Positions 43,687 through 47,099 of a stretch of DNA of 64,000 bases are shown one piece after another. The translations under genes and the position numbers were made by a program. Below the pieces are notes generated by a model. That model saw only the letters and a program-made list of their open reading frames with translations. It was not told where the DNA came from and ran no database searches. The stretch is from contig CALYBB010000038.1 in assembly GCA_944393715.1 (NCBI GenBank), positions 15,325-79,324 on the forward strand. Reading direction: 5' to 3'. Positions within the stretch are counted from its first letter, which is position 1. Each line of letters starts with the position of its first letter. The stretch is from an uncultured Alphaproteobacteria bacterium (GTDB taxonomy: Bacteria > Pseudomonadota > Alphaproteobacteria > RF32 > CAG-239).

Positions 43687-44157
43687 TTATTTTTTTGGCT
43701 TTTGGGCGAGCGTTTGTTTAATTTTTGAGCGAATGTTGCCGGCTTTTTTTGATTTTTCGGGTTTGACGGAATTAATCTCATTTTTTATTTCTTCAATCAT
43801 TTGTTGTGATGATTTGATGTTTTTGATGACAATCCGTTCGGGTTCGGCCGGTTTGCGGCAGCAAAAAATTCTAAACGGGGCCGTCAAAAGTTTTAGATAG
43901 TTTTTTCGCAAAGCAAAGATAAAACCTGTGAGCCAGACGAAAGGCAGCAAAAACAATGCCATTAGCAAAAGGACATCGGAGGTTGTTTTAATTACGCCGC
44001 CTTGAGACCAGAAGGTTGATAAAATGTTCCAAGAATGGGCGGACATGAAGTCAAAATTCCAGACAAGAAAAATCAATTGGTTTGACAGGAATGCAAATAA
44101 AACCGTCCAAATAACAAAAATTAAGGCAGCACGAATTAATTTGATGATTCTTTTCAT
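43687..44157 (-). CDS. Hypothetical membrane protein, short paralog of the N-domain of the 42402-43625 product
   Basis: 156 aa. Shares motifs WNFDFMSAHSW...FWSQGGVI. Basic tail KIKQTLAQKPKK. Confidence 0.5.
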   Translation of the reverse strand: MKRIIKLIRAALIFVIWTVLFAFLSNQLIFLVWNFDFMSAHSWNILSTFWSQGGVIKTTSDVLLLMALFLLPFVWLTGFIFALRKNYLKLLTAPFRIFCCRKPAEPERIVIKNIKSSQQMIEEIKNEINSVKPEKSKKAGNIRSKIKQTLAQKPKK

Positions 44158-46142
44158 TATCTTCCCCGATTTGTATTTCTGAGATCATTATATGTTTTTG
44201 AAATATCTTGACCACTCTGATTCTGGATGTTTTTTCGGGTTTTTTCCAGTTTTTCTCTCCGCGTGTTACAATCTTCTTTTCTGAGGCGTTGTTCCCTTTC
44301 CAGAGCGTCAATATTAAACATTTCGGCAGCGTATAATTCAGCCGGATCCGCCTTGTTATATTCGGTCATCAAGGTTTGAGTGTTTTCTTCGCTGACGGTG
44401 GTTTGGCCGATAATTGTTTTGAGTTTGGTGTCAACAATCGGATTTTTGTCTTTTTTGTTTTTGCTTTTGTTCTGCGATTCTTCAACTAGATTTTTAGCTT
44501 CGGCAATCAAAGCTTCACGCGACAAAACATCTTTGCCTTCTCTGCGTTGTTTTTCGGCCGTCCAGAAAATCATGCGGGCTTCAAGTTCGGCATTTTTCAT
44601 AAAATCGAGGCATTTTTCATCGTTGCACAGAATATTGTCTTTAGGGTTTTGGCGGCATAATTCGGTGAGTTTGTAGACAGCATAGTGGTTGGCAAACAAA
44701 TTTGATTGTTCTTTTAAGACTTCTAATGAAATTATGTTTTCTTGGCGAAGGTTTTGTTTGATGCGGGCGTTGGTCAGAGCTTTGAAATATTTGTCGTTTT
44801 GAGGTTGGGAAAGAGTCGGGTTACCTTTAGTTTTAACGACGTCTTCTTCGTAGGCATACTGTTTTTCCAGCCATTTTTCAATTTCCGCCTGTTCTTCGGG
44901 GAATCTGTTTTTAAGATCATTTTCCTGTTCTTTTCTTATATTATCCCGAAAAGTTGTAAAAAATTGTCGAACTTCTTCAGGGTTTGACGGTTTTATGTCC
45001 TCAAACTTTCGTAATTTTCCGCCTGTGACAATGCCTTGGTCATTGATGACGGCTTGATTGTTAATAAAACGAGTCAGGTAGTTGGAGAAGGCTTGTATTT
45101 TTTTGGCTTCTTTTTCAAAATCATCGAGGTGTTCTTGGCTATTCTGGGCCTGTTGTTCGTAAGTTGCTATTATATTTTCAAAACGATCGGCGGCATCGTT
45201 TTCCTGAGGATCGTCTCTGTTAAAAAGGTTGTTTTTAACGTTTTTCCAAGTATCTGAGAAGAATTCTTTGGTCGTGCGCCAACCTGGGCGGAGGGCATGC
45301 CTATAAATGCCGCTGCCGGCTTCATAAACGAGGATGCCTGCGCCACCGGCTATTTTGTTGCCTGCCCAAGCTGCCGATGCCAAAATGATGTCTTTCATGA
45401 GGTATTCGATGATATCGCCTTGCTCAATTTTGAAATCATCGTTATTGTCATCTTTGGCCCAATCAGGGTCGTCTCTTTGGCCGTTGATGCGGGCGGCGTT
45501 TTTCTCAAGTTCTCTGTCTAAATCTCTTTGGTGTTTTTTCAGTAATTCCTGCAGCCGTTCTTTGTCAAGATCGTTAAGGCCGGCTAAATATTCATTTTGT
45601 TGATCTTCGCTTAAACTGAGGAATTCCGCATCACTTTTGTCGCAAAAGTTGGCTTGGGATGCAGAGACTTGTTTGATGTTTTCTATCTCTTCGGGCAGTT
45701 GTTCTTCGCCGTAAACTTGTTTGAGGTCTTGGGAAATTTGGTCGCGGGCGGCTTGTTCGTCATCATGGTCTTTTAGTGTTTGGGCAGCAAAAATTTTCAT
45801 TAATTCTGCCGGAGCCAGCTCTCTTTTCAAGTTTTCGTCGGAAAATTTTCCGTCATTTGACGGTTTTATGCCGCGTTTTTCGGCAATAATATCTATTGCA
45901 GCGGCATAGTCTTTTATTTGCTGTGGTGTCGGTTTGGAGGTTTTGTCTTTGGTGGCGCGGTAAATAGCGGCAGAAGCTTGGAGAAGGCGCGAATTACGAT
46001 CTGCCGCGGACAGGGATTTCAGCATTTGAACGTGGGGTTTGACAGGCGTTTTTTTCAATTCGGAATCCAAAAGGCGGGAGACTTTTCCGCGAATATTATC
46101 TCCGACACTAGGTTCTTTTGCCATTGTATATGTCCTTATCAA
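44157..46142 (-). CDS. Large hydrophilic coiled-coil-rich hypothetical protein (candidate T4SS-associated or effector protein)
   Basis: 661 aa, rich in K/E/D/Q, no signal peptide, Arg-rich C-terminus NDLRNTNRGR. Its stop overlaps the next gene's start. Confidence 0.45.
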   Translation of the reverse strand: MIRTYTMAKEPSVGDNIRGKVSRLLDSELKKTPVKPHVQMLKSLSAADRNSRLLQASAAIYRATKDKTSKPTPQQIKDYAAAIDIIAEKRGIKPSNDGKFSDENLKRELAPAELMKIFAAQTLKDHDDEQAARDQISQDLKQVYGEEQLPEEIENIKQVSASQANFCDKSDAEFLSLSEDQQNEYLAGLNDLDKERLQELLKKHQRDLDRELEKNAARINGQRDDPDWAKDDNNDDFKIEQGDIIEYLMKDIILASAAWAGNKIAGGAGILVYEAGSGIYRHALRPGWRTTKEFFSDTWKNVKNNLFNRDDPQENDAADRFENIIATYEQQAQNSQEHLDDFEKEAKKIQAFSNYLTRFINNQAVINDQGIVTGGKLRKFEDIKPSNPEEVRQFFTTFRDNIRKEQENDLKNRFPEEQAEIEKWLEKQYAYEEDVVKTKGNPTLSQPQNDKYFKALTNARIKQNLRQENIISLEVLKEQSNLFANHYAVYKLTELCRQNPKDNILCNDEKCLDFMKNAELEARMIFWTAEKQRREGKDVLSREALIAEAKNLVEESQNKSKNKKDKNPIVDTKLKTIIGQTTVSEENTQTLMTEYNKADPAELYAAEMFNIDALEREQRLRKEDCNTRREKLEKTRKNIQNQSGQDISKTYNDLRNTNRGR

Positions 46143-46220
46143 AAAAAGGTTGCAGAGGTTTTTTCTGTTGATTTAAGTATAACAATAATTTCGTTTTTTG
46201 TCTATATTTTTGTGCAAAAA

Positions 46221-47099
46221 TCAGGCCTTAAGCTTTTTTAGAAAGTTGCCAAGCTTTTTGTTCGCTTTGATTCCGTCTTCCGGTTTTGGTTTTATCATTC
46301 CAAAAAACTTGGGTGGAATTTTGTCAATTTGAATTGGTGCAAAAGTTGCCGGATTATTTTCGAGCATTTTTTTGGCGCCGTCTGGATCTTTGCGGAGAGT
46401 TTTAAAGAAGTTGTTGACCAAACGTTCGGCATCGATCGGAAAGTTTTTGGCACGAATGGCATCAATGTAGCGGTGCATTTTTTTTTGGCGGTTTTGTTGC
46501 TCTTCAAAGATTTTTTTTTCGATTTTGTGGCGTTCGAATTTGACTTTGCGCATGTTGTAGGCAATCTCGCAAGAATCTATTTCAATTAAAGTTTCGACAT
46601 AAGAGAGCAAGGCATTTTGCAGGTTTTTATCGGTTGTTTTTTCGGCAAAAGATAAAATTTGTTCATCAGAGGCGTTGTCGGGCAAAGATGCCAAACGAAT
46701 CGGTTGGGCCTGAATTAGGATATTCCATGAATCTAAAATATCTTGGCTTAGTGAATCTGTTTTTGTCGGACGGAAACGCGGTAACAGATCTTGGATCTTG
46801 AAGTGGAATTCCGGTATTTTAATTCCGGCGTCGTTGCCACAGGCCTTAACGGCTTTAATGAAGTCGGAATAAGCATTGAAAAGCGCTTTTTCTTCGTTTG
46901 CCAGTTTGGCAACCAAGGGTGCCTCGTCTTGATTTAGAATGGAGGATAAGGGAATATTATCGTCATCTGATTGTGCGGACGAATTGTTTTTTGAGTCATT
47001 CGCTTCGGCCAGCTGATCTTCGGTGTCTTGGAGCTGTGCGGCAATAAAATCATCAAGAAGCTTGTCAAAATCGGAGGAGGAAATTTCACTTTCGGCCAT
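46221..47099 (-). CDS. Hypothetical acidic protein with a basic C-terminal tail
   Basis: 292 aa. Acidic N-terminus. C-terminus KANKKLGNFLKKLKA. Confidence 0.4.
   Translation of the reverse strand: MAESEISSSDFDKLLDDFIAAQLQDTEDQLAEANDSKNNSSAQSDDDNIPLSSILNQDEAPLVAKLANEEKALFNAYSDFIKAVKACGNDAGIKIPEFHFKIQDLLPRFRPTKTDSLSQDILDSWNILIQAQPIRLASLPDNASDEQILSFAEKTTDKNLQNALLSYVETLIEIDSCEIAYNMRKVKFERHKIEKKIFEEQQNRQKKMHRYIDAIRAKNFPIDAERLVNNFFKTLRKDPDGAKKMLENNPATFAPIQIDKIPPKFFGMIKPKPEDGIKANKKLGNFLKKLKA

Follow-up and report, generated by a model that had tools for sequence, protein, structure and literature searches.

We favour, at a probability of roughly 0.55, the reading that two soluble proteins, p292 and p655, are cytoplasmic partners, fixed and lineage-specific, of a VirD4 ATPase encoded on the chromosome, and not variable injected effectors. 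Both are encoded in the window, the stretch of 64,000 nucleotides of DNA analysed here. They look like previously undescribed companions of an unusually conserved coupling ATPase, and a link of both to type IV secretion is supported by gene order and sequence comparison. Positions 44157-47099 are filled by two minus-strand ORFs, which are real and end as quoted in the preliminary description of this DNA. They belong to an operon with the following features.

40129..40150, minus strand: terminator-like hairpin directly after the VirD4 stop codon (pattern scan only)
40154..42382, minus strand: VirD4/TraG-type type IV coupling protein, 742 aa, from Pfam domains, motifs in the translation and TM segments
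40157..40216, minus strand: acidic C-terminal tail of VirD4, EDYEEFEEFEEEENEQNADS
42402..43625, minus strand: p407, membrane hairpin, Pro/Lys-rich linker and cytoplasmic domain, from the ORF and TM segments
43687..44157, minus strand: p156, small inner-membrane protein, two-helix hairpin
44157..46124, minus strand: p655 (the "slot" protein), ORF with ATG start, 655 aa, C-terminus ...NDLRNTNRGR
44160..44219, minus strand: hydrophilic Arg-ended C-terminal tail of p655, QSGQDISKTYNDLRNTNRGR
45321..45470, minus strand: invariant central motif of p655 (residues 219-268), DPDW..DD.FKIEQGDIIEYLMKD.ILASAAWAGNK.AG..G...YE.
46221..47099, minus strand: p292, ORF, 292 aa, C-terminus KANKKLGNFLKKLKA
46224..46274, minus strand: predicted basic amphipathic C-terminal helix of p292, GIKANKKLGNFLKKLKA
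47113..47388, minus strand: p91, small single-TM protein, first operon gene in this lineage

The minus-strand operon runs from the 91-aa membrane protein through the 292-aa and 655-aa proteins and the 156-aa and 407-aa membrane proteins to the 742-aa coupling protein, with spacings of 13, 96, -1, 61 and 19 bp; the start of p156 and the stop of p655 overlap by 1 base. The hairpin at 40129..40150 is the probable operon end, although the total count of such hairpins in the region is not above shuffle expectation. The two ORFs had been placed directly upstream of the coupling protein. A coupling protein does lie downstream (40154-42382, PF02534), but the genes for p156 and p407 are in between, in the same operon. 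The surroundings are housekeeping genes, and VirD4 itself, with core genes around it, is at a distance of about 10-17 kb to the probable replication origin. The p91 gene, which precedes p292 by 13 bp on this strand, has a weak, sub-threshold match to DUF6476 (E = 0.003). It is found in 77/77 loci reaching that gene and is missing from the deeper-lineage modules L084, L087, L089 and L090, and its place in the module is uncertain.

By its T4SS-DNA_transf and TraG-D_C domains, membrane anchor and Walker motifs, the 742-aa protein is a bona fide VirD4-family ATPase. The Pfam matches are PF02534 (E = 4e-58, 197.8 bits, gathering cut-off 20.1), PF12696 (E = 3e-22, 79.4 bits, cut-off 22) and PF10412 (E = 2e-16, 60.4 bits, cut-off 20.5). 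Two N-terminal TM helices are located near residues 20-49 and 95-113, and the translation contains the Walker A motif APPGTGKT and the Walker B motif VMDEF. The last 20 residues have a net charge of -12. In the full-length orthologues examined the tail carries -6 to -14, preceded by an almost invariant PDWIVAQREDINDDMLAKLGIDYDPNE. The closest plasmid relatives, 36% identical, are VirD4 genes that end virB2-B11 operons.

The operon is syntenic in all of the about 70 complete loci, taken from 77 species-level gut alphaproteobacterial genomes. Ranked by median identity, VirD4 (84.7%; range 77-96%, 66 loci) is above RpoH (81.6%), RluD (64.7%), p407 (60% in RF32-type loci) and RNase G (55%). p292, found in the 77 genomes, is close to RNase G at 54%, followed by p91 (44%), p156 (40%, orthologues in 70 loci) and p655 (31%), the fastest-evolving gene of the operon. 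From this ranking and the core chromosomal location, p292 and p655 are therefore under long-term purifying selection.

p292 is soluble and all-helical (AF2 model, mean pLDDT 84.9) and belongs to an uncharacterised family with at least 273 homologues in gut alphaproteobacterial MAGs, at 41-72% identity. From the N-terminus, an acidic helix (SSDFDKLLDDFIAAQL) is followed by a linker, also acidic and variable, then by a central domain (residues 73-176), a C-terminal domain (about 165-292) and a basic amphipathic end helix. Other lineages have the C-terminal domain too, in proteins that are 211-386 aa long and in a single protein of 638 aa, and four of these proteins adjoin VirB6-like genes. The last 28 residues of p292 include ten invariant and six nearly invariant columns, and a pattern N-K-K-h-x-x-F-h-K-K-h-K is common to RF32-type and deeper lineages. 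The hydrophobic moment of the tail is 0.46, against 0.27 +/- 0.13 for shuffles; since 9% of the shuffles reach the observed value, the amphipathicity is only suggestive. Judging from the alignment, the basic tail appears to be an amphipathic helix conserved position by position and not a compositional signal.

The slot position holds one ORF of 450-755 aa in each complete locus. In the window the ORF from the TTG at 46142 (44157-46142) encodes the 661 aa given earlier. All homologues begin with MAK, and a ribosome-binding site, AAGGA, precedes the ATG at 46124, so the true start is most likely this ATG and the product 655 aa. p655 is soluble and helical (all-helical AF2 model, mean pLDDT 73.9), with 51 homologues of 28-99% identity. 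Its central motif contains 24 invariant columns among 31 aligned sequences, and a reduced form, DII..M...W.LA.A, is retained in positional orthologues missed by the HMM. Residues 210-309 have a pLDDT below 50, i.e. the most conserved segment is the one with no confident monomer fold, as would be expected of a segment whose folding needs a partner.

The C-termini of both proteins were described as positively charged, and they are: p292 carries +4 and p655 +2 in the last 20 residues, and +7 and +4, respectively, in the last 30. By charge alone they are not distinctive, as 29% of 66 non-overlapping window ORFs reach at least +2 and 12% at least +4 in the last 20 residues. What appears to set the tails beyond chance is their conservation, not their charge. 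The 72 distinct slot-family tails are related sequences and not independent events; of these, 30 have R and 16 K as the last residue, R or K is among the last three residues in 66/72, and G is in the last four in 53/72. Their net charge is 0 to +6, none being net negative, and the hydrophobic fraction is 0.19 against a background of 0.40. They are rich in Arg, Asn, Gln and Gly, and a G-R end is very frequent. The slot proteins of four other lineages also end in GR (4/4); no statistical homology to p655 was detected for these deeper-lineage proteins.

The two membrane proteins are related, the N-terminal 78 residues of p156 (TM segments at residues 7-30 and 55-80) being 27% identical to p407 (E = 2e-7). 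p156 is best read as a truncated paralogue of p407, and its equivalent in deeper lineages is full length (343-354 aa). The cytoplasmic domain of p407 contains a near-invariant block, GDWLADEERFNDEEPLWFSESSHRISPVR, which is invariant in alignment A3. p407 has no match to families, PDB or plasmids.

As had been noted, neither p292 nor p655 has a signal peptide or a recognisable enzymatic motif. Both lack a hydrophobic N-terminus, a TM segment and a Pfam or NCBIfam family above threshold. The label "acidic" for p292 holds in a mild form, with a pI of 5.6 (5.5 for p655). Their AF2 models have no Foldseek match in PDB at E <= 0.001. With neither a family nor a significant fold match, the two proteins therefore have no FIC or BID domain, and the effector-like folds suggested earlier were not found. 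No other effector or delivery domain was identified in them using Pfam, NCBIfam, PDB and Foldseek. Against PDB chains, p292, p655, p156 and p407 show no sequence similarity, either as single sequences or as profiles (A1, A2, A3). This includes the Dot/Icm subunits DotM, DotN, DotY, DotZ, IcmS, IcmW and LvgA, for which Foldseek also returned nothing significant with p292 and p655. PADLOC gave no match for any of the six operon proteins and PHROGs none for five (VirD4 left out), and these searches do not point to anti-phage defence or a phage protein.

In four deeper lineages a p292 relative is encoded back-to-back with tandem VirB6-like genes, and three of the four retain a 407-like gene and VirD4. 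For these three (L084/L086, L087/L088 and L089) the order p292-like, slot, p156-like, p407-like, VirD4 is kept, and the modules are back-to-back with three to four tandem TrbL/VirB6-like genes. In L084 these encode 881, 497 and 534 aa (PF04610, E = 1.7e-6, 3e-5 and 1.2e-12), in L087 there are four in tandem, and in L089 and L082 they were identified by blastp. VirD4 in L084 and L089 is 62% identical, with p407 orthologues (33-36%) immediately upstream. In L082 a 211-aa p292 relative adjoins VirB6-like genes with no VirD4. L090 has a p292-like/slot pair with no VirD4 within 10 kb, and the function of the pair may therefore not strictly need an adjacent VirD4. The pair itself, p292 followed by slot, is retained in every slot-bearing lineage, L090 included. 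In two distant lineages, one with no adjacent VirD4, rluD and a kinase-like/159-aa pair stay linked to p292 and slot. Tandem VirB6/TrbL genes were not found in the window or in 79 loci of its own lineage, and VirB3/4/8-11 were not observed in any examined locus (about 20 kb per genome). Neither the window nor 1.49 Mb of sequence from this lineage, all covering the same region, shows a VirB gene, and a channel in this lineage is therefore putative.

Under the partner reading, p292, the GR-tailed slot p655, the paralogous membrane hairpins p156 and p407, and VirD4 would form a five-gene unit at the inner membrane, feeding a type IV secretion channel encoded elsewhere. We infer the physical contacts, the channel in this lineage and the transported item. 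In sister lineages the tandem VirB6 paralogues would mark the channel, as in the rvh system of Rickettsiales. VirD4 hexamers would be anchored by their own two TM helices, with p407 and p156 at the flanks. The role of p292 would be that of a scaffold or adaptor, with the basic amphipathic helix at its end keeping it on the membrane or attached to a partner. p655 would dock through its invariant central motif and offer VirD4 a hydrophilic tail ending in Arg; it would be a resident subunit with a regulatory or tethering function, or else the dedicated client of the system, and it could be a universally conserved VirD4 client. In favour of the partner model we counted the tight operon with its hairpin, the about 70 syntenic loci, the residue-by-residue conservation of the p292 tail, the identity ranking, the gene order and VirB6 adjacency in deeper lineages, the p292 relative beside VirB6 in L082, and the conserved p655 segment with no confident fold as a monomer. 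Counted against it were the fast evolution, variable length and positive hydrophilic tail of the slot, which fit a secreted client equally, the L090 pair with no VirD4, the same-region sequence with no VirB, the deeper slots that show no statistical homology to p655, and the only suggestive amphipathicity of the p292 tail. A bolder version is tentative: in a type IVA equivalent of the coupling complex of Legionella, VirD4 would be an obligate assembly with the membrane proteins p156 and p407 and with two soluble proteins from new families. The one universal client in this version would be the GR-tailed slot, a pilot, plug or cargo whose terminal G-R is recognised, with p292 as adaptor; the assembly would serve an rvh-like T4SS with several VirB6 copies, in gut Alphaproteobacteria that are commensal or free-living.

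It is possible, if rather doubtful, that p655 is an exported substrate whose Arg-ended tail is read by VirD4, with p292 as its retained chaperone or adaptor. The pair kept in every slot-bearing lineage, even away from VirD4 in L090, would be expected from this, and so would the slot being the most length-variable and fastest-evolving gene, as for a protein exposed outside the cell. None of the tails is net negative, R/N/Q/G are overrepresented in them and a G-R end is frequent (4/4 deeper-lineage slots), but they come from related sequences with counts that are not independent, and 29% of the window ORFs have at least +2 in the last 20 residues. The central motif, which the monomer model shows as disordered, could serve to bind the chaperone. 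However, a universal cargo beside housekeeping genes is unusual for effectors, and p292, with 292 aa and three conserved regions, is far larger than classical secretion chaperones, which are much smaller than this. Quite improbable is the reading in which the VirD4 machine has been domesticated and, in this lineage, has given up its work for a secretion channel; the module might be a translocase bound to the membrane or an assembly for signalling, for instance, and p292 and p655 would take part in that other process. The conservation of VirD4 above sigma-32, its location about 10-17 kb from the probable origin among core genes, the lack of nearby VirB genes in this lineage and the ties of p292 and slot to rluD and the kinase-like/159-aa pair in two distant lineages all agree with it. 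On the other hand, the p292 family is found beside tandem VirB6 paralogues in four sister lineages, VirD4 retains TM anchor, Walker motifs and acidic tail, and scattered T4SS gene islets are normal in rvh-type systems (PMC2653234).

Very improbable, finally, is the reading of the preliminary description, that both proteins are translocated effectors acting in a target cell. Their hydrophilic nature, the missing signal peptides, the net-positive C-termini and VirD4 in the same operon agree with it, and the T4SS link it assumed stands through this operon and the VirB6 adjacency in four deeper lineages; what is not supported is that they are effectors of the usual kind. p292 is conserved like a housekeeping enzyme in 77/77 genomes with a positionally conserved amphipathic tail, and its relatives lie beside VirB6 genes in lineages lacking the rest of the operon. 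No effector domain or fold, FIC and BID included, was found in either protein, and the hosts belong to gut MAG lineages for which the data here give no sign of life inside cells or of pathogenicity. For p292 taken by itself, the effector assignment is not supported, given its 41-72% identity in 77 genomes, similar to RNase G, and the positionally conserved helix of its tail. For p655, with its conserved hydrophilic tail ending in Arg, it may still apply.

To our knowledge, coupling proteins of the VirD4 type are generally regarded as acting on their own, save Dot/Icm and a few single partners such as CagZ, and their client selection is poorly understood. With the Bep proteins of Bartonella the likeness is the net-positive C-terminus only; BID and FIC are absent by Pfam, and there is no PDB fold match at E <= 0.001. 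The Agrobacterium VirB/D4 substrates (VirE2, VirE3, VirF, VirD5) carry the tail consensus R-X7-R-X-R-X-R, and VirE1 is the cytoplasmic chaperone of VirE2 and stays in the cell. The slot tail is likewise hydrophilic, net-positive and Arg-containing, and that of p655 fits the Agrobacterium signal as it is described in general terms. A possible adaptor/client gene pair with a VirD4-family receptor is common to both systems. However, similarity in sequence or fold is lacking, the Agrobacterium virulence factors are encoded on a plasmid and the present proteins by core genes of the chromosome in every species, and the p292 tail appears to be a conserved amphipathic helix instead of a compositional signal. 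The slot tail is a simple, testable candidate recognition peptide.

In Helicobacter, CagZ is a small all-helical cytoplasmic protein encoded beside the VirD4 homologue Cag-beta, which it binds and stabilises, and it is not secreted. The gene of an all-helical cytoplasmic protein beside a VirD4 homologue is shared with our operon, but there is one such partner there against four here, and the p292 and p655 models have no significant PDB match. In the rvh system of Rickettsiales rvhD4 follows rvhB8-B11, and we know of no partners of rvhD4 like p292, p655, p156 or p407. This chromosomal, vertically inherited T4SS has its genes in scattered islets, with VirB6 "extraordinarily duplicated" (PMC2653234). 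Similarly, three to four tandem VirB6-like genes lie beside the module in L084, L087, L089 and L082, although the hosts here are gut MAG lineages that are not known obligate intracellular bacteria. The module points to an rvh-like T4SS in Alphaproteobacteria that are abundant in the human and ruminant gut and about whose biology very little is known.

Legionella Dot/Icm offers a parallel in gene organisation, with a membrane protein gene directly upstream of the ATPase: DotM is encoded directly upstream of DotL, as p407 is of VirD4 here. Soluble, non-secreted partners help to capture clients in Dot/Icm. The ATPase here is of the VirD4/TraG type, its nearest plasmid relatives being VirD4 of virB operons and not DotL, and the four partners have no sequence similarity in PDB, nor the p292 and p655 models a fold match. 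The complex DotL-DotM-DotN-DotY-DotZ-IcmSW is a precedent for a multi-subunit coupling complex (PMC7280309). In both systems the coupling ATPase is encoded beside several dedicated partners with which it would work. Across an order-level clade of uncultured gut bacteria VirD4 is above sigma-32 in conservation and always has the same four partners, and like its Legionella counterpart it may offer a natural multi-subunit coupling module, here of type IVA, open to co-expression and cryo-EM study.

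Two ORFs on the minus strand fill positions 44157-47099, as the preliminary description reported, and they lie within a minus-strand operon of six genes spaced by very short gaps. The smaller encodes a 292-aa protein (p292). For the larger, the N-terminus is MAK... in 51 of 51 homologues, NCBI calls the gene at 655 aa on a contig of 99% identity, and an AAGGA ribosome-binding site is found upstream of the ATG at 46124. Therefore, the real product is a protein of 655 aa (p655); the ORF and its C-terminal end are as first described, but not the length of 661 aa. Nor are the two genes directly upstream of the coupling protein (VirD4), as had been stated, since the genes of two membrane proteins, p156 and p407, intervene.

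Genes of the operon (window positions, strand, description).
47113-47388, minus: p91, a protein with one TM helix
46221-47099, minus: p292, 292 aa, C-terminal end KANKKLGNFLKKLKA
44157-46142, minus: larger ORF (p655), 661 aa counted from TTG, C-terminal end NDLRNTNRGR
43687-44157, minus: p156, a two-helix membrane hairpin; its start overlaps the p655 stop
42402-43625, minus: p407, a hairpin paralogous to p156, a Pro/Lys-rich linker and a cytoplasmic domain
40154-42382, minus: VirD4/TraG-type coupling protein, 742 aa (PF02534, E = 4e-58)

The membrane hairpins of p407 and p156 share 27% identity (E = 2e-7), and a terminator-like hairpin is located 3' of the VirD4 stop. One block of p407, GDWLADEERFNDEEPLWFSESSHRISPVR (residues 288-316; gene at 42402-43625, minus strand), is almost invariant across 25 sequences, including lineages with a VirD4 only 62% identical, and has no match to a known family or structure in Pfam, NCBIfam or the PDB.

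We propose, with a probability of roughly 0.55, that p292 and p655 belong to a five-gene coupling module as fixed partners of VirD4. Every contact within this module, as well as the transported substrate, is something we infer.

There are at least 273 relatives of p292, all from uncultured animal-gut Alphaproteobacteria. A scan with one genome per species found 77 loci in gut MAGs from humans (Hadza and other cohorts), ruminants, rabbit and mouse. "Proteobacteria bacterium CAG:495" is among these genomes, and its clade, that of the 77 loci, we take to be the GTDB order RF32. One 829-kb contig (L079, JAISVX010000003.1) carries the whole syntenic operon under the label "Lactobacillaceae bacterium"; this MAG is probably mis-binned or mislabelled. 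Gene order and the rluD/rpoH neighbours are the same in every locus long enough to show them.

The operon is flanked by yacG, RNase G, maf, dksA and fliX on one side and by rluD and rpoH on the other. The remaining annotated genes of the window are gyrB/parE-like, adk, hydF, cca, rlmN, dnaX, recR, radA, mlaEF, tsaE, coaE and dnaQ, together with a cluster of parB, parA, rsmG, mnmG, mnmE and rho at 21874-31742. Over the whole window the GC skew changes sign at ~16 kb and ~28 kb, with the cumulative minimum at ~26-28 kb, and the chromosomal replication origin region probably lies within the window. Given the housekeeping flanks and the skew minimum, the operon therefore lies in the core chromosome, ~10-17 kb from the probable origin. 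A mobile-element origin in this lineage is rejected on account of these flanks, of the synteny fixed in 77 genomes and of a tblastn search of 72,556 plasmids, where neither p292 nor p407 has relatives. HydF, an [FeFe]-hydrogenase maturation GTPase (4627-5832, plus strand), fits an anaerobic, fermentative gut lifestyle of the host.

Close to rpoH and rluD in most loci is a further gene pair. In the window it consists of a 693-aa kinase-like protein (49942-52023, minus) with a weak Pkinase match (E = 1e-5), a PADLOC MkoA-like match (E = 5e-10) and a C-terminal TM helix, followed by a 159-aa protein with two TM segments (49466-49945, minus). The pair is also found in a distant locus (L090; 28% identity, E = 1e-85), again beside a p292-like gene, and a functional link to p292 and its neighbour is possible.

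Within the neighbourhood, no gene is as conserved as that of the VirD4 homologue (66 species-level genomes). The median full-length identities to the window proteins are 84.7% for VirD4 (range 77-96; 66 loci), 81.6% for RpoH, 64.7% for RluD, 60% for p407, 55% for RNase G, 54% for p292, 44% for p91, 40% for p156 and 31% for p655. All VirD4 copies are intact (730-755 aa), and the Walker A (APPGTGKT) and Walker B (VMDEF) motifs are legible in the translation. Conservation above that of sigma-32 (RpoH) is, in our judgement, unusual for a coupling protein. It points to a strong constraint on VirD4, plausibly imposed by several fixed partners.

At the other extreme, a full-length BLAST match to p655 is obtained in only 16 loci. 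Still, every complete locus contains exactly one large ORF (450-755 aa) between p292 and p156, a position that we call the slot. In one species (locus L018) there are two slot genes of identical length (533 aa; 10916-12517 and 13843-15444), separated by two extra ORFs (134 and 282 aa), apparently a local duplication of the gene that evolves fastest.

Neither the window nor 1.49 Mb of sequence from its own lineage, all of it the same syntenic region, shows a VirB gene, and a VirD4 machine divorced from secretion is one reading of the locus, if an improbable one. Deeper lineages, found among the 155 matches of a p292 profile searched against 1.84 billion representative proteins, tie the p292/VirD4 module to type IV secretion. 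The matches include forms of 209-235 aa, 310-386 aa and one of 638 aa (P0204), which share only the C-terminal domain. This domain is common to the relatives adjoining VirB6-like genes.

Deeper-lineage loci with p292 relatives.
L084/L086 (GC 57%): 342 aa (p292-like), 367 aa, 343 aa (p156-like), 357 aa (p407 orthologue) and 776-aa VirD4, in this order
L087/L088: module as in L084/L086, four VirB6-like genes
L089: module as in L084/L086, three VirB6-like genes
L082/L083: only a 211-aa p292 relative; VirD4 absent within 10 kb
L090 (GC 36%): p292-like and slot protein; neighbours, as in the window, are rluD and a kinase-like/161-aa pair; VirD4 absent within 10 kb

In L084/L086 the p407 orthologue and VirD4 are 33% (E = 6e-64) and 62% identical to those of the window, and three tandem TrbL/VirB6-like genes (PF04610, E = 1.7e-6, 3e-5 and 1.2e-12) diverge from the module. 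The three polytopic proteins of L082/L083 are homologous to these deeper-lineage VirB6-like proteins (E = 1e-13 to 1e-9). Some neighbours are absent from the window: 3' of VirD4, L084 encodes a 359-aa PQPYA-repeat protein followed by one of 144 aa (16895-18412), and L089 an OmpA-domain protein (16072-16569). Downstream of the tandem VirB6-like genes, L086/L087 encode a conserved set, composed of an HTH_3 protein (330 aa), one giant protein (1420-1500 aa) and three proteins of ~316, 400 and 300 aa, the last four without a Pfam match; this set could be further unrecognised system components.

The closest plasmid relatives of the window VirD4 (36% identity), on Sphingomonadales megaplasmids, close classical virB2-B11-virD4 operons. 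On this ground, and for the lack of sequence matches to DotM/DotL-type entries in the PDB or NCBIfam, we reject the 742-aa protein as DotL and p407 as DotM of a type IVB coupling complex. VirD4 carries two TM helices, and its tail is acidic (net charge -12), as in every case examined. We considered a pairing of this tail with a basic tail of p156 and dropped it, because only in this species is the p156 tail basic (elsewhere 0 to +8); a pairing with the basic tail of p292 is speculation.

The two proteins had been put forward as candidate T4SS substrates with positive C-termini. Both ends are indeed net positive (last 20 and last 30 residues: +4 and +7 for p292, +2 and +4 for p655), but charge alone is not distinctive, because 29% of 66 non-overlapping window ORFs reach at least +2 in their last 20 residues and 12% at least +4. 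Both lack a hydrophobic N-terminus and TM segments. No family is found above threshold in Pfam or NCBIfam, no PDB match by single sequence or profile, and no Foldseek PDB match at E <= 0.001, so they are not FIC or BID proteins; the suggested look for such folds, or any other effector fold, found none in Pfam or Foldseek PDB. PADLOC and PHROGs matches are absent as well, against a defence system or phage gene. That both are classical effectors is very improbable.

The main rival, which we find doubtful, is that p292 stays in the cell as an adaptor and that the slot protein, recognised by way of its G-R tail, is a universal cargo. Slot tails are hydrophilic (hydrophobic fraction 0.19 vs 0.40 background), rich in R, N, Q and G and in no case net negative; among 72 distinct tails, 46 end in R or K and 53 have G within the last four residues. 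The slot proteins of L084, L087, L089 and L090 (195-367 aa) all end in G-R (4/4); their similarity to p655 is not significant by HMM, and we treat them as positional analogues. This conserved Arg-ended hydrophilic tail, of the kind first envisaged, keeps the client hypothesis alive for p655. The AF2 model of p655 is helical (pLDDT 73.9) and falls below 50 exactly over an invariant motif (residues 219-268), as would be consistent with folding of this segment on a partner. A reduced form of the motif (DII..M...W.LA.A) is retained where the HMM misses it.

The model of p292 is confident and all-helical (pLDDT 84.9), with a conserved acidic N-terminal helix followed by a variable acidic linker. 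The central domain (residues 73-176; 46572-46883, minus) recurs in Bacteroidales-type proteins; one homologue, of 221 aa, belongs to a cluster with a Barnesiella MAG protein (30% identity, pairwise E = 9e-9). Profile matches at E = 1e-8 to 1e-5 also place it at the C-terminal ends of long proteins of the TIR-Sel1 and STAND-TPR-SH3 types. It is an uncharacterised domain that defence-like multidomain proteins have as well. The last 28 residues contain 10 invariant and 6 nearly invariant columns, and the pattern N-K-K-h-x-x-F-h-K-K-h-K is kept in all lineages. Such an end helix would behave as a structural docking or membrane-binding helix rather than a compositional secretion signal; a MinD-like membrane-targeting helix is only suggestive, as the moderate amphipathic moment (0.46) is equalled by 9% of shuffles.

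The kind of system, a type IV coupling protein with accessory proteins, is already known. The component families and the module appear undescribed, because no curated family matches and our literature search on the RF32/CAG-239 lineage and secretion systems turned up nothing of relevance. The rvh system of Rickettsiales is typified by a VirB6 multiplied in tandem and by scattered islets of genes (PMC2653234); beside the deeper-lineage modules, VirB6 is likewise multiplied in tandem. Neither p292 nor p655 resembles a subunit of the Dot/Icm coupling complex or any other type IV secretion accessory protein of solved structure. The architecture would nevertheless be analogous to the Legionella coupling complex, DotL-DotM-DotN-DotY-DotZ-IcmSW (PMC7280309), whereas the module in the window would instead be built on a type IVA VirD4 with partners unrelated to the Dot/Icm proteins.
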